Of a DNA stretch of 64,000 bases, positions 8,638-47,304 are shown one piece after another (position 1 is the first letter of the stretch; each line of letters begins with the position of its first letter). Source of the stretch: Candidatus Omnitrophota bacterium (GTDB taxonomy: Bacteria; Omnitrophota; Gorgyraeia; Gygaellales; Profunditerraquicolaceae). The stretch is from NCBI GenBank assembly GCA_025453395.1, contig JALOQK010000001.1:74244-138243 (forward strand). The letters are read 5' to 3'. Both the position numbers and the translations under genes were made by a program. The notes beneath the pieces are model-generated. The model searched no databases, was not told the origin of the DNA, and saw nothing but the letters and a program-made list of their open reading frames with translations.

Positions 8638-11577
8638 ATGGCGCATATATTAAGAAATAAAAAAGCCTCGGCATTATTGCTTTCTATGATAACGATTATT
8701 TTTCTAATTAGCGTAACCGCGGCCGCGCTTTTGCGTTATATCACTGAACAAAAATCCACAAATTCAACCCTGGGCAGAATCAAAGGCATCTTTAACGCTG
8801 AAGAAGGCATTTACTATGCCTACGCGGAGCTTTCTAAAAATGCCTTTAACTGGGGCACACACGAATGGAAAAACTCTCAACTTCAGAAAATAGCCAATCC
8901 AACTTTCTCTGTTGCACAAGCTGGCTTTAATAACGACGGCTCATATTACGTGGCCAATCATAATTTTAAGGTGATTGTCTTCCCGGAATTAAGAACTGAC
9001 GGCTCTGAAACAAACGTAGTTATTGTCCGCTCACAGGGCCTTGATAATACAGCAGCCCCTTTGCGCACCATAGAGCTGCGCGTGAGCAAACAATCATTGT
9101 TTGATTATTTTTATTTCTTCCCCTATGACAAAACATTTTCTACCGCCACCTACGACGGCGCCGGTTACGGCAAAATGCACGCCAACGGTAATATTTATTT
9201 TTCCGGTAACCCTATTTTCATTAATCTGACGGAATTGAGCACCGCTGGAAAATTCGCCTTGTCCAACTCCCAATACGCTTCCCCCTATTCTTTTGACAAT
9301 AACAACACAACCATTGACGGAAAAGCGGATCTCTATGGATCATCTGCCCCCCCTTACGAATATTACCTGCCAAGCTCTTTATATAACCCGGGTTATTTTT
9401 TTAACGGAAACTACTATCCTTCAGCAAACAATAACGCGACAGTTGACGGAATAAAACTTCCTATAACATTAGCTACCTCTTGGAAATGGGACCAATACTC
9501 CGGGACAAAAACACAAGCAGAAGTGCCTGTTTCATTCACCGTTGATAACAATGCTCTTTCCTGGCTTGCCAGCAATAAAAGTTTTCTCCCCCCGGCTGAC
9601 TACGCTTCTTTTTCAGCAGCTGTAATAGACGGCACAACGGATAGCTTCTGGAACGCCTGGAAAGCCGCCAATTACACAGACGCAAATACAAGCACCACGG
9701 GAAACTTGGCAAGGGCTTATTGGACAACCTTTTTGGGGCCTACTTATATAAACAATTACGTGAATAACGAATGGTGGACAGATTTAGTTTATGGCAATGG
9801 CCGGACAACCGATGCGAGCTCGGATTTAATTGATGTCAATTTCCTGGACACATCGCAACAAACATCTGACTGGTCAAGCTGGCTATCAGGAAAAAAAGTT
9901 GATATCGTAAAACAGGATACTAACGCTACCGGAACTTTAGATTTGCAAGATATTCTAAAAGATAATTCCAACGGCGGGAAATACCTTACCCCTATAGACA
10001 TACAAACTGATTACAAGGCCAAGGCTTCTTCCGGAGGGATACTCTTAGGTCAAGTTGAAACAAGCGGATATACAGCATGGCTGAATCAACCAAGAACTTT
10101 TACATATTCAGGACATACGTTTAATTATACCATGCGCCAAGACGCAAATGTATATACTTGGGGAACCAACAGGGTAGAGTATATTACAGCTAAAGATGAT
10201 ACTGTTAACCGGTTCTGCGCGGCAGCAGGATATGATCAGGATTGCAGTGACTGCTATGATCTAAGAGATGCTTTTGAATCGGAATTAAGCAGTAATTATT
10301 ATGCCGGTGACGTTATGGGGTGGAACACTGAAGAATTGGAAGAAAAGGGTATTGTAAGCTTTAAAGAATTCTATAACCCGGTCAGGCCTGCCGGATCATC
10401 TTCTTATCTAAATGATTCACAAAATATTGCCTCAGCCAAGAAAACCAAAGCTTTAAATATTGACGTGGAGAAACTGCGCGCCTACCTGGCGGGCAAAGAT
10501 TATAACGGAATTATTTATGTGGAAACGCCAGACGAATCTGACCTTTCTTATGATTATTCGGTCTCTCTTACCAATGCCGGGATATTGCCGGAAAAAGGGT
10601 TAACACTGGTTACCCCGCATAATATTTACGTGAATGGAAGCTTTAACCTTGATTACACAAGAGACAGCGCGACTGAAGCATTCACTCATTATCAAGCAAC
10701 ACATACAGAGAACAACAGCAATGATTATAAATGGCGCAATGCCGCTCTTATAAGCACCAAACGCCTAATTTACACGGTGTCTGACCAATTCTTGGATTAT
10801 GCTGCAAACTTATCTTCTTTCTCAGATATCGCCTCATACCATTACTGGGAACCTAACAGCTCAAGCACATCTTATCCTTATTCATTAGGAAGCTTAAACT
10901 TTATCAATACTTACCTTAATGCTGCCGGGGTAACAGGAAACAATTCTCCGCAGGCGGTAAAAGACTTTTACGCCAAGTACCCGGGCCTAAGCATTCCCGG
11001 TTTATGGACACCTGCGGATATTGAATTCTTAAAATCTAAAGCTGTTTACGACCCCTCTGCGGCAACTGCCGCGAAAGCGCTTCTTGATGCCGGAGAACAA
11101 AATTATGCCACCGCAACTGAATCTAAACAACCCAACAGGGTACTTTATGATATAACTTATAACACCGCTATGGTCTCTGCTTATGACCCCAGCGGTTATA
11201 CCTTAGAGCGCTGGATTAACTCAAGCGGACAAACAGTAAAAAGAAACATTACCGGCGCGTTTATACAGCTTACTGCTGATAAACGCGCTTCTGTGCCATC
11301 AAACTATTCAATAAAAGTTGGAGGAAAATTTTGTTATCAAGTAGGGCCAGGATATGATTATTGGGGTTATTACAGATCTGGCAGGTTTGGGAGCAATCGA
11401 TACGTTCCGCAATTCTCCGACGCATATAACCCCATTTATAATTACGCTTATGAAATTAACTTCGCCAAGAATTCCGCAAGTGGAGCAAGTACCGGCCCCA
11501 TTGCCACAGGCAAAAAGAGTTGGATAGAACTTCCTAATAGCGACTTTTTCCCGGTAAAGAAAATATATTGCCCTTAA
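8638..11577 (+). CDS. Giant PilX-N-domain protein, putative pilus-tip adhesin (979 aa)
   Basis: N-terminus KKASALLLSMITIIFLISVTAAALLRYITEQKST...AEEGIYYAYAEL resembles the PilX_N domain. The rest is N/Y/S/T/G-rich with no catalytic motifs. Last gene of the minor-pilin operon. Confidence 0.6.
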   Translation: MAHILRNKKASALLLSMITIIFLISVTAAALLRYITEQKSTNSTLGRIKGIFNAEEGIYYAYAELSKNAFNWGTHEWKNSQLQKIANPTFSVAQAGFNNDGSYYVANHNFKVIVFPELRTDGSETNVVIVRSQGLDNTAAPLRTIELRVSKQSLFDYFYFFPYDKTFSTATYDGAGYGKMHANGNIYFSGNPIFINLTELSTAGKFALSNSQYASPYSFDNNNTTIDGKADLYGSSAPPYEYYLPSSLYNPGYFFNGNYYPSANNNATVDGIKLPITLATSWKWDQYSGTKTQAEVPVSFTVDNNALSWLASNKSFLPPADYASFSAAVIDGTTDSFWNAWKAANYTDANTSTTGNLARAYWTTFLGPTYINNYVNNEWWTDLVYGNGRTTDASSDLIDVNFLDTSQQTSDWSSWLSGKKVDIVKQDTNATGTLDLQDILKDNSNGGKYLTPIDIQTDYKAKASSGGILLGQVETSGYTAWLNQPRTFTYSGHTFNYTMRQDANVYTWGTNRVEYITAKDDTVNRFCAAAGYDQDCSDCYDLRDAFESELSSNYYAGDVMGWNTEELEEKGIVSFKEFYNPVRPAGSSSYLNDSQNIASAKKTKALNIDVEKLRAYLAGKDYNGIIYVETPDESDLSYDYSVSLTNAGILPEKGLTLVTPHNIYVNGSFNLDYTRDSATEAFTHYQATHTENNSNDYKWRNAALISTKRLIYTVSDQFLDYAANLSSFSDIASYHYWEPNSSSTSYPYSLGSLNFINTYLNAAGVTGNNSPQAVKDFYAKYPGLSIPGLWTPADIEFLKSKAVYDPSAATAAKALLDAGEQNYATATESKQPNRVLYDITYNTAMVSAYDPSGYTLERWINSSGQTVKRNITGAFIQLTADKRASVPSNYSIKVGGKFCYQVGPGYDYWGYYRSGRFGSNRYVPQFSDAYNPIYNYAYEINFAKNSASGASTGPIATGKKSWIELPNSDFFPVKKIYCP

Positions 11578-11580
11578 AAA

Positions 11581-11660
11581 AATAAAGGGGACGGTTCAAA
11601 ATAAAGGGGACGGTTCAAAATAAAGGGGACGGTTCTATTAAATAGAGCCGTCCCCATATT
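11581..11660. terminator. Bidirectional rho-independent terminator with triplicated 19-bp left arm
   Basis: (aataaaggggacggttcaa)x3 then ttaaa tagagccgtcccc; hairpin GGGGACGGTTCTA/TAGAGCCGTCCCC flanked by an A-run upstream and T-run downstream. Lies between convergent genes. Confidence 0.7.
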
Positions 11661-22083: not shown

Positions 22084-22127
22084 AGCGTTTAATTATACAG
22101 CCTCAAATTAAAAAACCAAACATATTT

Positions 22128-22236
22128 CTTAGCTAAAAAATTAAAGCGTAAAGCTAAAAACTACAGTGCAAAATTAAAAATTTTTAATTTTGAATTATGG
22201 TTTTTAGTTTTACGCTTTTAGCTTTACGCTTTTTGC
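22128..22236. repeat. Family B heptamer palindrome, copy 2
   Basis: aaagcgtaaagctaaaaactacag...ggtttttagttttacgcttttagctttacgcttt. Confidence 0.7.
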
Positions 22237-22240
22237 CTCT

Positions 22241-22453
22241 TTATCTACTGCGGCGTATGGCAGCTAAACTTATTTTTCTTTTTGTTTCGGCGGAATGGTG
22301 CTTTCCGTACATGGGGTTATTTTTGCCTTTAGTAGCTTGTGATATTTTAGCCAGGGAAGATTTCTTGTGGCGCTTTCCGTACATGGAATTACTCTTTCCT
22401 CTTTGCGCTAAACTGATCTTGCGCTTTGTCGCCTCTGACTGCTTTCTCTTCAT
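22241..22453 (-). CDS. Standalone NUMOD3-repeat DNA-binding mini-protein (70 aa), homing-endonuclease remnant-like
   Basis: Three tandem NUMOD3-type motifs: SEATKRKISLAQRGK..., KSSLAKISQATKGKNNPMYGK, SAETKRKISLAAIRRS. No nuclease domain in frame upstream. Confidence 0.65.
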   Translation of the reverse strand: MKRKQSEATKRKISLAQRGKSNSMYGKRHKKSSLAKISQATKGKNNPMYGKHHSAETKRKISLAAIRRSR

Positions 22454-22580
22454 ATGCCCTCCATTTGTTTATATTATACCCCAATCCAGTCAAAATCTCA
22501 ATCTTAAATTTTGCCAAAAAGGCTAACACCCGCGCAATACAAGTTAAGCGCGGGTGCCGGAACAAAACAACAATATCTAT

Positions 22581-22600
22581 TTAGCTAAAGCGTCTACAAA
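22581..22600. repeat. 20-bp direct repeat TTAGCTAAAGCGTCTACAAA (left boundary of 2-kb cassette)
   Basis: Identical 20-mer recurs at 24615-24634. Confidence 0.8.
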
Positions 22601-22603
22601 CTA

Positions 22604-23002
22604 TTAACTAACCTCAACGCCATGTTTTCGCTTAAATTCTTCTTTCACTTTGGGAAAAATCAGGAAAGATAATTTATAATAAGGTTTAATAAATAAGGAA
22701 TTTAACAACTGCGGGATTTCGCTTTCTGGTGTTACAGGCTCAAAGAAATATTCCTTGGCCTGCTCAACAGTTAAAAAAGGCTTCCAAAGAAGCATTCCAA
22801 CACCCATACCTAAAAATGTAAAAATATAAAGCATTGTTCCAGTTAATGGCAGGACTGCGCAAAAAATTATAAAACGGCTTGGTTTTGGCCCGAATATAAA
22901 TGCTAAAAAACAAATTGAGGCTATTATGCCTACGAAAATAACAAACATCATTACCAGAAAAGCTATAAAATTAACCAACTGTTTAAATTTTTCTTTGTTC
23001 AT
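22604..23002 (-). CDS. Small membrane protein, unknown function (132 aa)
   Basis: Three predicted TM helices; lies inside the direct-repeat-bounded cassette. Confidence 0.5.
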   Translation of the reverse strand: MNKEKFKQLVNFIAFLVMMFVIFVGIIASICFLAFIFGPKPSRFIIFCAVLPLTGTMLYIFTFLGMGVGMLLWKPFLTVEQAKEYFFEPVTPESEIPQLLNSLFIKPYYKLSFLIFPKVKEEFKRKHGVEVS

Positions 23003-23030
23003 AGTTATTTTCTGTCGGCCTTGCCTTTTC

Positions 23031-23582
23031 TTACTTGAATGATTTTAAGGTAAAGGCCCCTATTAAACCTAATCCAAAACATATTGGCACAGTATAAGCA
23101 GCCATCTTAGCAAGCGCCTTCATGGATTCACGAAATGAAACTTCCTTGGTGCCTTGGGCTTCCTTATTAAATACTTTTCTGGCTGGCGGGATACACCAAG
23201 CCAAAAGATTTGCTACTATCATCCCCAACGCCAGAGAAGAAAAAATAAGAGGCACCATAAGAAGAAAACTTGAAATAAAGCTTTCGGCGGACATCTTCCC
23301 TCTCCAGAATTGCGAAAACTTACCGGCATGTTCCGGGAATATCAGGATATGAATATTCCATAGTATTTTGAATTGAAAAACCCAACTAAACCATACACCC
23401 AACACAGTAAACGGTATTAAAATCAAATTCCACGGACTTTTTCTACGGCCGGCTCTTGCAGTAGCTTCGGTCAGATATTCCCCACCGGATTTAGTCTTGG
23501 AAGCTATATGCAAAATAACCCAGATAAGAATTATGCTAACAGCTGGAACAAGTAAACTAGATAAGATTTCTCTTTTCATCAT
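23031..23582 (-). CDS. Membrane protein, unknown function (183 aa)
   Basis: Four to five hydrophobic helices; lies inside the cassette. Confidence 0.5.
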   Translation of the reverse strand: MMKREILSSLLVPAVSIILIWVILHIASKTKSGGEYLTEATARAGRRKSPWNLILIPFTVLGVWFSWVFQFKILWNIHILIFPEHAGKFSQFWRGKMSAESFISSFLLMVPLIFSSLALGMIVANLLAWCIPPARKVFNKEAQGTKEVSFRESMKALAKMAAYTVPICFGLGLIGAFTLKSFK

Positions 23583-23696
23583 ATTTATTATATCGCTGTC
23601 AAATCAAAATCTCAATTATAATTTTCGACCGGTCACAAATTGTGACCAGTTCATCTATTTCAGCTTTTGCCACCTCCCTGCCCAGAAAGGGCACAT

Positions 23697-23724
23697 TTGC
23701 GCCTGCCTGCCGGCAGGCAGGCAA
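23697..23724. repeat. 28-bp perfect palindrome TTGCGCCTGCCTGCCGGCAGGCAGGCAA (family C)
   Basis: Exact dyad symmetry. The same 22-bp core is at 46663-46684, with variants at 33170-33191 and 24655-24690. Confidence 0.85.
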
Positions 23725-23786
23725 TTCCGATAAGCACAAGGTATCTACCTTATTAGACGAGGGAGATTGTTAAATCTTACAAAAAT

Positions 23787-23826
23787 AAAAAGGACGGTTA
23801 TTTTTAATAGAACCGTCCCTTTATTT
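23787..23826. terminator. Bidirectional terminator hairpin GGACGGTT...AACCGTCC, downstream of brnA
   Basis: aaaaaggacggttatttttaatagaaccgtccctttattt; A-run upstream, T-run downstream. Confidence 0.7.
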
Positions 23827-23836
23827 GCTTATTTGC

Positions 23837-24088
23837 TTATCTTACCCCTTGCGCCACCTGATGCAGGATTTCGGAAATAAAAGTTTGGTATTTAACGCCC
23901 AATTGCCTTGCTTTTTGCTTAATATGTTCCAGATCATAGCTATTCACCCGGATATTCAACACCGCGTCTTTCTTTCTGGCTTCAAGCATCCGCGCGATTC
24001 TATCGTATTCCTCTTTACCCGCAGGCACAAACTCTTCAAAATGATCTTCAATCCATTGCTCCTCTTTGGTTAATTTTATCTTTCTCAT
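23837..24088 (-). CDS. brnA: BrnA-family antitoxin (ribbon-helix-helix)
   Basis: 83 aa; LNIRVNSYDLEHIKQKARQLGVKYQTFISEILHQ matches the BrnA C-terminal RHH pattern. 4-bp overlap with the upstream toxin gene. Confidence 0.75.
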   Translation of the reverse strand: MRKIKLTKEEQWIEDHFEEFVPAGKEEYDRIARMLEARKKDAVLNIRVNSYDLEHIKQKARQLGVKYQTFISEILHQVAQGVR

Positions 24089-24345
24089 ATAATCACCTCT
24101 TTCTTATAAATTTTCTTGTATTTACGACACGGATATAATGTTTTTAAGAAAATACCTTCTGCGTCAGCAACAAATGGCGCCGCCCAAACATACCCATTAT
24201 GTTCATATATCAAAATCCCTTGATTGTTCCTGCTTGGATGTTGCAGGACATCTAAAAACTTTGCTTTGACTATTTCTTCGAATGAAACGCCACGTATGCG
24301 TTTTAATCTTGCACTTTTTGTTACATTCCATCTGATTGCCTCCAT
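24085..24345 (-). CDS. brnT: BrnT-family toxin (DUF497 RNase)
   Basis: 86 aa; W..K...N..KHGVSFEE-like N-terminus (RWNVTKSARLKRIRGVSFEEIVKAKF); toxin-first gene order typical of BrnTA. Confidence 0.75.
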   Translation of the reverse strand: MEAIRWNVTKSARLKRIRGVSFEEIVKAKFLDVLQHPSRNNQGILIYEHNGYVWAAPFVADAEGIFLKTLYPCRKYKKIYKKEVII

Positions 24346-24442
24346 AAAATTGTCGTGCCGCTTGTTGTATATACAATTGTATTATAAAGAGACCTCCTTG
24401 TCAAATTCTTTTATTTCCACGGCACCTACCCCCTTTCATCCA

Positions 24443-24585
24443 TATTAGACGAAGGAGGTTGCTGAATCTTACACAAAAAGTGTAGGCCAGCTTATCCTAT
24501 AAAGCTGGGCCTTACAAAAAAGTCACAAGGTCACAAAAAAAGGACGGCTCATTTTAATGAGGCCGCCCTTTATCCTGCCCTTAAT
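24443..24585. repeat. Second copy of the ~80-bp 'ttagacgaRggaG...aaaggacgg...ccgtccctttat' element (with insertions); first copy at 23745-23830
   Basis: catattagacgaaggaggttgctgaatcttaca...aaaaaaaggacggctcattttaatgaggccgcccttta aligns with ccttattagacgagggagattgttaaatcttaca...aaaaaggacggttatttttaatagaaccgtcccttta. Confidence 0.65.
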
Positions 24586-24614
24586 TGTTTTGTAATTTAT
24601 TGGAAGACTAGAGG

Positions 24615-24634
24615 TTAGCTAAAGCGTCTACAAA
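24615..24634. repeat. 20-bp direct repeat TTAGCTAAAGCGTCTACAAA (right boundary of cassette)
   Basis: Identical to 22581-22600. Confidence 0.8.
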
Positions 24635-24811
24635 TAATGAATTTTAAATTGTGGTTTTGCCTGCCTGTCTGCCGTAGGCAGACCTACCGGCAGGTAGGCG
24701 TTTTTCGCTTTTAGCTTTACGCTAACTAAGCTCTACCCGAGCTAGTGACAATCTGTCCTGCTTCGCCATTTAACTAACAAAATATGGTATGGCTTCGCAG
24801 AGACTGCGCCA

Positions 24812-34892: not shown

Positions 34893-35028
34893 GTTAGCGT
34901 AAAGCGTAAAACGAAAAGTGTAAGACTATAATTTAAAATTCAAAAATTTTAAATTTTGCGCTATAGTTTTACATTTTACGCTTTTCGCTTCTGTTTTTCG
35001 CTTTTCGCTTTTCGCTTTTCGCTTTCTA
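34893..35028. repeat. Family B heptamer palindrome, copy 4, with (TTTTCGC)x6 tandem run
   Basis: gttagcgtaaagcgtaaaacgaaaagtg...gttttacattttacgcttttcgcttctgtttttcgcttttcgcttttcgcttttcgctttc. Confidence 0.75.
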
Positions 35029-46520: not shown

Positions 46521-46656
46521 AGTGAATGAACACCGGCCCATCCGATAGGGCCGGGTGTTAGCAGTAGTGAACACCGGCCCATCCGATAGGGCCGGGTGTT
46601 AGCAGTAGTGAACACCGGCCCATCCGATAGGGCCGGGTGTTAGCAGTAGTGAACAC
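46521..46656. repeat. Tandem array, 3 copies of a 41-bp unit each forming hairpin AACACCGGCCC-ATCCGATA-GGGCCGGGTGTT, directly upstream of ptsN
   Basis: Units begin at about 46521, 46566 and 46607 (plus a partial at 46648). Unit agtgaacaccggcccatccgatagggccgggtgttagcagt. Confidence 0.85.
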
Positions 46657-46662
46657 TCCGCG

Positions 46663-46684
46663 CCTGCCTGCCGGCAGGCAGGCA
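46663..46684. repeat. Family C 22-bp perfect palindrome GCCTGCCTGCCGGCAGGCAGGC
   Basis: Identical core to 23701-23722. Confidence 0.85.
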
Positions 46685-46830
46685 ATACATAATAAGCGCC
46701 GGGTGTAGGTATTATGTATAAAGAAACTATTCCTACTCCTCGCCTAATCGCTCTCAAATTTTTAGTGCTGCGCACCAAAAATTTGCTTCGCAGGCTTCGG
46801 AGTGAAATTTTTACTGCGTAAAAATTTCTA

Positions 46831-46903
46831 AGCGGGAGACGGGGTTCGAACCCGCGACATCGACCTTGGCAAGGTCGCGCTCTACCAACTGAGCCACTCC
46901 CGC
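46831..46903 (-). tRNA. tRNA-Gly (anticodon GCC)
   Basis: Revcomp GCGGGAGTGGCTCAGTTGGTAGAGCGCGACCTTGCCAAGGTCGATGTCGCGGGTTCGAACCCCGTCTCCCGCT; anticodon loop TTGCCAA. Confidence 0.9.
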
Positions 46904-47118
46904 GTCGCTCACTTTAGGTGGTTCAATATTATCAAGTAAACTAACAATACTTATTGACGTATCTATTACTAATCTAGCGTTCGCTGGACGTTCGCTCCCC
47001 ATGGGAAAACCAAAGGTTTCCCCTCTGGCGTCGCTTGAGTGACATATCTAAAACTATATGCCCGCTCCTGTCACCCCTTCCTTTTGTCCTATCGATACTT
47101 TCAAAAAACTTTAGTTAA

Positions 47119-47200
47119 TGGGCGGAAGAGGAGTTGAACCTCCAAGGGTTGCCCCATCGGCTCCTAAGGCCGACGCGTATGCCAATTCCGCCATCCGCCC
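47119..47200 (-). tRNA. tRNA-Leu (anticodon UAG), type II with long variable arm
   Basis: Revcomp GGGCGGATGGCGGAATTGGCATACGCGTCGGCCTTAGGAGCCGATGGGGCAACCCTTGGAGGTTCAACTCCTCTTCCGCCCA; anticodon loop CTTAGGA. Confidence 0.85.
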
Positions 47201-47231
47201 GTCGAGGGCTTTGTAACTTTATTTAAATTTA

Positions 47232-47304
47232 TGAGCCTCCCGCGGCTCGAACGCGGCACACCCACCTTAAAAGGGTGGTGCTCTACCAGATGAGCTAGAG
47301 GCCC
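47232..47304 (-). tRNA. tRNA-Lys (anticodon UUU)
   Basis: Revcomp GGGCCTCTAGCTCATCTGGTAGAGCACCACCCTTTTAAGGTGGGTGTGCCGCGTTCGAGCCGCGGGAGGCTCA; anticodon loop CTTTTAA. Confidence 0.85.

Follow-up and report, generated by a model that had tools for sequence, protein, structure and literature searches.

The malQ-ttcA gap and its contents

The DNA considered here is a window of 64,000 nucleotides from a Candidatus Omnitrophota bacterium (GenBank assembly GCA_025453395.1, positions 74,244 to 138,243 of contig JALOQK010000001.1, a 272-kb contig of a metagenome-assembled genome), and all positions given below refer to this window unless another locus is named. Our subject is a perfect 20-bp direct repeat, TTAGCTAAAGCGTCTACAAA, whose two copies enclose a small set of accessory genes between malQ and ttcA. 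A preliminary description of the window had taken the two 20-mers to be attachment-site-like or target-duplication ends of one mobile cassette. With modest confidence, we favor a different reading, according to which the gap between malQ and ttcA would be a composite accessory islet in a hotspot junction and the 20-mers would be ends of repeat elements that reside in this genome, or else the scar of a recombination at such an element.

The gap measures 2,728 bp (22084-24811) and is flanked by a GH77 gene for MalQ and a PP-loop gene of the TtcA type; all genes between 13 and 35 kb of the window lie on the minus strand. Five small genes occupy the gap (Table 1), namely a predicted BrnT/BrnA-like toxin-antitoxin pair (brnTA), two genes for membrane proteins (mem183 and mem132), and a mini-gene containing NUMOD3 motifs alone (E 3.7e-25), which lies just beyond the left 20-mer as the preliminary description had placed it. 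The 2,034 bp bounded by the 20-mers are only part of this accessory gap. A second, outer direct repeat, whose copies are identical at 23 of 24 positions, encloses the NUMOD3 gene, both 20-mers, and everything between them, and it spans 2,517 bp of the gap when both copies are counted. The absence of an integrase, also stated earlier, was borne out by Pfam, NCBIfam, and PADLOC scans, in which none of the five gap proteins showed a recombinase or transposase domain, and the neighbors are syntenic housekeeping genes.

Each of the three predicted promoters of the gap matches 11 of the 12 consensus positions, and the three terminator hairpins (24539-24571, 23788-23822, and 22525-22558) are stable by folding. 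Because of these three promoters and stable hairpins, the gap holds three transcription units, two of which are situated inside the pair of 20-mers. The hairpin at 22525-22558 is likely to be the intrinsic terminator of the mem183-mem132 unit, judging from its predicted fold and U-rich tail.

Table 1. Features of the malQ-ttcA gap, with positions in the 64-kb window
Feature	Position	Strand	Remarks
ttcA start	22083	-	
Complete AT-rich element	22123-22232		Between NUMOD3 gene and ttcA start
Outer direct repeat, left copy	22207-22230	+	Right end of an AT-rich element
NUMOD3 gene	22241-22453	-	70 aa; NUMOD3 DNA-binding motifs alone; own strong promoter 22473-22501
NUMOD3-gene promoter	22473-22501	-	Strong (predicted)
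11-bp GC-rich hairpin, then U-rich tail	22525-22558	-	From folding
Left 20-mer	22581-22600	+	Solo terminal arm of AT-rich family; 3 nt past mem132 stop codon; 22 nt ahead of hairpin 22525-22558
mem132	22604-23002	-	Small membrane protein
mem183	23031-23582	-	Membrane protein
Promoter TTGAGA-17-TATAAT with upstream palindrome GGTCACAAATTGTGACC	Promoter 23587-23615; palindrome 23631-23647	-	
Perfect GC palindrome	23699-23725		27-mer identical (27/27) to 46660-46686
Copy b of repeated element	23747-23838	-	brnTA terminator hairpin 23788-23822 and 38-nt D7 box (23748-23785)
BrnA-like ribbon-helix-helix (CopG) antitoxin gene	23837-24088	-	83 aa; 4-nt overlap with toxin gene
Diverged BrnT-like toxin gene (predicted)	24085-24345	-	86 aa
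Promoter TTGACA-17-TACAAT with 12-bp perfect palindrome TTGTATATACAA	Promoter 24376-24404; palindrome 24365-24376	-	
Copy a of repeated element	24439-24590	-	D7 box, inserted 59-nt stretch with hairpin, terminator hairpin 24539-24571 after malQ
Right 20-mer	24615-24634	+	Left terminal inverted-repeat arm of AT-rich element 24615-24725
Degenerate seventh AT-rich member, 111 bp	24615-24725		malQ 3′ region; nhmmer and fold
GC-rich palindrome nested in AT-rich element	24657-24699		Diverged relative of palindrome at 23699-23725
Outer direct repeat, right copy	24700-24723	+	Right end of an AT-rich element
malQ stop codon	24812	-	

The 20-mer direct repeat

As the preliminary description had stated, TTAGCTAAAGCGTCTACAAA occurs exactly twice in the window, both times on the plus strand. 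No third copy appeared when up to three mismatches were allowed, none of 100 shuffled sequences contained two matches, and the 20-mer is one of just four dispersed exact repeats of at least 18 bp in the 64 kb. Furthermore, the sequence of the locus is 100% identical in three independent assemblies, namely the source contig, a Logan contig built from independent short reads (L089), and a contig from the JGI (L090). Because of the shuffle test and the identical independent assemblies, the repeat is real, and both chance and an assembly artefact were rejected as the origin of the pair.

The two copies had also been credited with similarity extending a few bases farther into the flanks. The matching positions were found (24 of 27), but the extension is not significant. 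Local alignments of the flanks against shuffled sequences revealed no gapped or longer similarity past the 20 bp, and a match of 12 out of 14 positions farther out (22605-22618 vs 24723-24736) also falls within the shuffle range. Among 97 fetched loci, only those that re-assemble the present one contained the exact 20-mer. JGI metagenome contigs, in which we estimated about one match by chance, were also scanned for exact copies and gave a single match, in coding-looking DNA of an unrelated contig, and the idea of a widespread exact 20-mer was rejected.

An AT-rich palindromic repeat family

The window contains a family of AT-rich palindromic elements with six full copies, near 4.6, 22.1, 29.8, 34.9, 53.7, and 56.9 kb, in addition to the element at 24615-24725, and all of the copies in the window are intergenic. 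In the copy at 22.1 kb, the two 50-nt halves are 80% complementary. A nhmmer profile built from the six other copies, with the present locus left out, gives a match to either strand of 24608-24729 (E 1.1e-4 and 6.5e-3); in the alignment, the GC palindrome is handled as an insertion. When 24610-24730 is folded (z = -3.4), positions 24615-24626, which lie within the right 20-mer, pair with 24714-24726 at the opposite end of the element, and the terminal pairing of this element takes in 12 nt of the 20-mer. Moreover, the motif TTAGC(N)TAAAGC is present at 6 sites in the window against 0.14 expected: at the termini of the 34.9-kb and 53.7-kb copies, at both ends of the 24.6-kb copy, at a degenerate site near 11.9 kb, and in the left 20-mer. 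The first 11-12 nt of the 20-mer are this terminal motif.

Because of the profile match, the pairing of the ends, and the enriched terminal motif, the right 20-mer is a family member's terminal inverted-repeat arm. The left copy belongs to the same shortened sub-variant and is a solo arm. The preliminary description had itself allowed that the 20-mer might prove to be one member of a genome-wide repeat family, and this holds by half: the first 11-12 nt of the sequence, and the right copy, belong to a dispersed family.

Copies of the AT-rich family adjoin several housekeeping genes: one is found upstream of ilvD, others separate ilvC from leuA, carA from carB, and a beta-CASP gene from the L27 gene, and another is next to hisG. 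Both ends of the Logan contig lie inside family copies. The family is also present in two other species, and a search of the region for Rfam families returned none besides hairpin noise on the AT-rich element. A copy lies 20-35 bp upstream of ilvD in the window (34893-35000) and in two other Omnitrophota species (L011:1191-1308 and L028:1146-1241) whose MalQ is just 56-58% identical to that of the window. That this copy has been kept for so long hints at a regulatory role and runs counter to a purely selfish repeat.

Selection could in principle have kept the two 20-mers identical if they had a function in the 3′ untranslated regions of two transcripts from the minus strand, either as a binding site for a protein or small RNA or as a signal for processing upstream of the terminators. 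The positions of the copies agree with such a role, as each of them is preceded on the transcribed strand by a stop codon and followed by a terminator hairpin (43 nt away at the right copy and 22 nt at the left), and the 20-mer contains an 8-bp palindrome, TTAGCTAA. However, the 64 kb include dozens of transcription units and the 20-mer occurs just twice, the contexts of the copies have no secondary structure in common and no Rfam match, and the first half of the sequence is already explained by membership in the repeat family. We consider this explanation very improbable.

The malQ-ttcA junction across Omnitrophota

The relatives of MalQ and TtcA are all from Candidatus Omnitrophota, with best identities of 62% and 75%, respectively. 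The order malQ, ttcA, rmuC, yfiH is preserved in 49 other Omnitrophota genomes, in which the distance between malQ and ttcA ranges from approximately 0 bp to 5.5 kb; it is shorter than 300 bp in 31 of them and longer than 1 kb in 10. Where the gap is large, the cargo is unrelated to that of the window and consists of an AbiEii toxin with HTH_3, a DUF6036 nucleotidyltransferase, HAMP-HD_5, HAD with DUF6498, NYN, DUF3800, or a nucleotide cyclase. Homologs of the five small gap genes were found at none of the 80 loci examined. Because a kept gene order is accompanied by varied gap sizes and unrelated cargo, the junction is a phylum-wide hotspot and the DNA in the window is accessory. Therefore, the earlier view that the segment breaks a conserved housekeeping order is supported by the synteny in 49 genomes, the short gaps in 31, and the lack of cargo homologs.

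Cargo of the toxin-antitoxin or defence type was observed at this junction in four loci (L029:11783-13186, L053:11801-13218, L067:11789-17269, and L061:10466-14328). This suggests that, throughout the phylum, the malQ-ttcA junction is a conserved small hotspot for defence or toxin-antitoxin genes.

The toxin-antitoxin pair

The preliminary assignment of this pair to BrnT/BrnA is correct at the family level, although the toxin is a diverged member. The 86-aa protein itself matched no hidden Markov model of Pfam, NCBIfam, or PADLOC and no protein in a PDB sequence search. However, it has 582 relatives at E <=0.001, and of the 74 relatives that were aligned, 30 reach PF04365 (BrnT_toxin), with a best E of 1.9e-9. 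A structure model from the single sequence was poor (predicted local distance difference test, pLDDT, 61.7), whereas the alignment-based model reached a pLDDT of 91.3 and consists of two short helices and a four-stranded antiparallel sheet, in agreement with the published description of BrnT (PMC5086665). The top match of this model among solved structures is the Brucella BrnT 3U97 (probability 1.00, TM-scores 0.51/0.56), with all 77 target residues aligned at 19% identity; RelE ranks third. Judged by its homologs and its modeled fold, the 86-aa gene is a diverged BrnT whose activity is predicted.

The 83-aa partner is a marginal match to the Pfam family CopG_antitoxin (PF12441; 28.7 bits vs a cut-off of 28), and against the NCBIfam BrnA model it scores 17.6 vs a cut-off of 60. 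The perfect palindrome at the brnTA promoter, TTGTATATACAA, is a candidate autoregulatory operator.

The membrane proteins

Both enclosed membrane proteins are polytopic, as had been described, each with several hydrophobic segments, and neither matches a family in Pfam, NCBIfam, or PADLOC. The mem183 family has approximately 39 members, which are mostly 154-171 aa long, uncharacterised, and share the invariant motif RRKSPWNLILIP; the window copy has an additional N-terminal hydrophobic segment. The homologs are solitary and occur in at least seven different contexts, beside recR, CorA, CrcB, SBF/ArsR, or VWA genes and once beside a tRNA. Several homologs (L085:560-741, L095:2167-2356, and L091:1-130) have a conserved leader, ...CCCTCTGTGATAATATAT...GGGCAGAG..., before the start codon, and the window gene lacks this leader and has its extra hydrophobic segment instead. 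The homolog in L091 (P0125) starts directly after a putative tRNA gene, as judged by eye. A 133-aa gene next to the homolog in L085 was considered as a possible mem132 partner and rejected as unrelated.

For mem132, a single homolog was found in 5.8 billion proteins (62% identity). It is located at locus L088 (GCA_041643025.1, JBGGHK010005258.1), where it is preceded by a zinc-ribbon membrane gene and lies upstream of a pseudopilin gene, a SIR2 gene, a 48-aa remnant of ttcA, rmuC, and yfiH; this locus contains no mem183, no toxin-antitoxin pair, and no 20-mer. The two mem132 genes are 76% identical in nucleotide sequence, which is no lower than the identity of the flanking rmuC (70.5%), and the comparison therefore fits a long residence of mem132 at this junction better than a recent arrival. 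The seven C-terminal residues of the window mem132 differ from those of the homolog.

Two side observations concern the same locus. The ttcA remnant (L088:2298-2465) is in frame and keeps the first ~14 and last ~34 residues, its last 42 residues aligning to residues 198-239 of the window TtcA at 74% identity; the SIR2-family gene is immediately upstream of it, and the mem132 homolog is ~1.3 kb farther upstream. In addition, a palindrome, GTCACAAATTGTGAC, stands upstream of a TTGAGA-17-TATAAT promoter in both genomes (window 23631-23647; L088:34-48), the L088 promoter being closely similar, and it precedes mem183-mem132 in the window and the zinc-ribbon gene and mem132 homolog in L088. It looks like a shared operator of a regulator.

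The preliminary description had raised the possibility that the membrane proteins and the toxin-antitoxin pair act jointly as an abortive-infection or defence module. The genes are adjacent, and the same junction elsewhere often holds AbiEii, NYN, and DUF3800, but the two units have separate promoters and terminators, none of the four proteins has a PADLOC match, and the linkage is not conserved: no toxin-antitoxin pair is present in the examined contexts of the mem183 homologs or in the context of the single mem132 homolog. We find a joint function of this kind hardly credible.

The NUMOD3 gene and the small repeats

The NUMOD3 protein aligns only with the central part of group I intron endonucleases (positions 96-157 of TIGR01453), and a catalytic nuclease domain is absent. 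The promoter region of the gene shares 78% identity over 40 nt with that of mem183 (23586-23625), and an exact TTGAGATTTTGA is common to these two promoter regions and occurs nowhere else in the window.

The duplicated terminator-bearing elements that had been reported from this segment are confirmed at 24439-24590 and 23747-23838, one of them with a 59-nt insertion. The perfect palindrome previously assigned to a "family C" is likewise present, as a 22-bp sequence, GCCTGCCTGCCGGCAGGCAGGC, within 23699-23725. The second copy of the 27-mer that contains it directly follows a 41-bp unit repeated in tandem (46527-46656, ~3 units, 100% identity), and three clustered tRNA genes (46831-47304) lie ~150 bp away from the whole block of 46527-46686. 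The brnTA terminator hairpin (23792-23822) is 87% complementary to 11623-11653; at 11579-11653, three perfect tandem 19-mers, AAAATAAAGGGGACGGTTC, run into this terminator-like partner hairpin. The spacers inside the 2-kb segment are repeats resident in this genome. An open reading frame of 979 aa at 8638-11577, the sole large plus-strand gene thereabouts, has no Pfam match at E <=1e-5.

Discussion

According to the reading that we favor, the malQ-ttcA gap would be a composite accessory islet in a junction that serves as a hotspot for gene gain across Omnitrophota. The islet comprises three independently transcribed modules, namely a BrnT/BrnA-like type II pair, a mem183-mem132 operon, and the NUMOD3-only mini-gene, each of which is read from its own strong promoter into a terminator hairpin or a repeat element, with short repeat families resident in the genome separating one module from the next. 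The 20-mer is the terminal inverted-repeat arm of a ~110-bp AT-rich palindromic element similar to repetitive extragenic palindromes (REPs) and miniature inverted-repeat transposable elements (MITEs); the right copy belongs to a whole element in the malQ 3′ region, and the left copy is a solo arm beside the mem132 stop codon. The repeat itself, its place in the family, the modules, the hotspot, and the missing linkage among the cargo genes are established by the results given above; the two 20-mers may on this basis be sister ends of repeat elements, or a recombination scar at such an element, rather than the attachment sites of a self-contained mobile cassette.

At first glance, the segment resembles a mobile cassette, and an identical direct core at both ends, as in att-type sites, is indeed present (20/20). 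However, the interpretation of the 20-mers as the ends of one mobile cassette was not supported: the right copy is the arm of a repeat-family member, the cargo genes are unlinked elsewhere and were not found to travel as one unit, with solitary mem183 homologs and a single mem132 homolog that has neither mem183 nor a toxin-antitoxin pair nearby, and no inverted repeats were read from the sequence at the ends of the insert (22601-22630 vs 24585-24614). A plasmid or phage origin was rejected after the segment gave no DNA match to plasmids or phages.

A narrower form of this idea deserves separate consideration. A single insertion of 2,034 bp, carrying brnTA and mem183-mem132, may have entered an AT-rich element 20 nt from its end, by way of a circular intermediate using short homology or by a recombinase encoded elsewhere, so that the 20-mer was duplicated or left flanking and the repeats are true boundaries. 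We consider such an event possible but rather unlikely. A perfect match of 20/20 with an abrupt loss of similarity on both sides has the appearance of a boundary, but the usual target-site duplications are 2-14 bp long, and 20 bp is far above this range. The left copy begins only 3 nt past the mem132 stop codon and the seven differing C-terminal residues of mem132 are what would be expected at a junction, yet a mem132 homolog already occupies the same locus in a distant relative, which by the identities given above fits long residence and not a pristine scar. Conceptual excision of one 20-mer and the enclosed DNA restores malQ, the repeat element, and the terminator hairpin in sequence, but the three assemblies show the occupied form alone. 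Moreover, the insertion would lack a recombinase or transposase in the gap, inverted repeats at its ends, and similarity to plasmids or phages, and it would have brought in cargo genes that are never linked elsewhere.

Several points weigh against our preference for a composite islet over such an insertion. The malQ 3′ end left by the conceptual excision looks natural, consisting of the repeat element and then the hairpin at 22525-22558. The 20-mer copies are identical at 20 of 20 positions, whereas the other members of the AT-rich family are 60-85% alike, and no further exact copy is present in the window, among the fetched loci apart from re-assemblies, or in the JGI contigs apart from one chance match. 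Because of this perfect identity and absence elsewhere, the pair fits a recent local duplication, for example by an insertion event. The count of solo arms covers the 64-kb window of the source genome. Furthermore, because identity to the closest relatives reaches only 75% for TtcA and 62% for MalQ, there is no empty site to compare at the nucleotide level; malQ adjoins ttcA in distant relatives, all three assemblies carry the occupied form, and a look-up of the exact NUMOD3, MalQ, TtcA, and mem132 proteins returned the occupied form alone.

A bolder proposal would assign an active part to the AT-rich elements, as docking sites at which integrase-less modules are spliced into intergenic DNA. 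The 20-bp repeat would then be the fresh footprint of a 2-kb unit, composed of the toxin-antitoxin pair and the membrane operon, that entered 20 nt inside an element. We regard this proposal as doubtful and quite improbable; if it is true that the repeats mediate the insertion of modules, they would provide a simple integrase-free route of gene gain.

With the composite islet as the favored reading, the locus offers a worked example in which a perfect short direct repeat around accessory genes may be the end of a repeat family and not necessarily an attachment site. It also points to malQ-ttcA as a phylum-wide hotspot that repeatedly gathers toxin-antitoxin and defence-type genes, and it gives a first account of AT-rich palindromic repeats forming a family in this phylum, the Omnitrophota.

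Comparison with known systems

Integrative elements that are flanked by att sites or borrow a host recombinase such as Xer share with this locus perfect direct repeats of ~20 bp around integrase-less accessory DNA. However, the present 20-mer is not dif-like, as it lacks a pair of inverted binding arms separated by a central spacer, and it is part of a dispersed family, encloses incoherent cargo, and shows no sign of excision in the three assemblies. The locus also differs from a transposon or insertion sequence with a target-site duplication, for there are no terminal inverted repeats at the ends of the insert and no transposase domain in the gap.

The locus also resembles genomic islets in intergenic hotspots. 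As in such islets, the flanks consist of conserved core genes, most relatives have little or nothing in the gap, and the cargo varies from lineage to lineage and includes toxin-antitoxin genes. The present islet differs in being very small (2.7 kb), in having no tRNA target and no integrase, and in consisting of three modules of one or two genes that are split by resident repeats. The toxin-antitoxin pair has the BrnT-type sheet on two short helices with 3U97 as its best structure match, a CopG/ribbon-helix-helix partner of PF12441, overlapping genes, and a palindrome at the promoter, all as in BrnT/BrnA systems. Unlike in known members, the toxin sequence lies below the Pfam and NCBIfam BrnT models, which its homologs alone reach, and the antitoxin is far below the NCBIfam cut-off for BrnA.

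The AT-rich elements correspond to REP/MITE-like repeats in their length of ~110 bp, their AT-rich palindromic sequence with terminal inverted arms, and the other small palindromes nested inside them. Like such repeats, they exist as many diverged intergenic copies between housekeeping genes and break short-read assemblies, and one copy supplies the right 20-mer and a solo arm the left. They differ in that no target-site duplication is visible around the element, that no associated transposase, for instance a tyrosine transposase of the REP-associated type, came to light, although no search aimed at one was made, and that three species keep a copy upstream of ilvD, as would be unusual for a purely selfish element. 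Taken by kind, variable islets, repeats of the REP/MITE type, and toxin-antitoxin pairs of the BrnT family are all known, and they are found here in the setting of an under-studied phylum.

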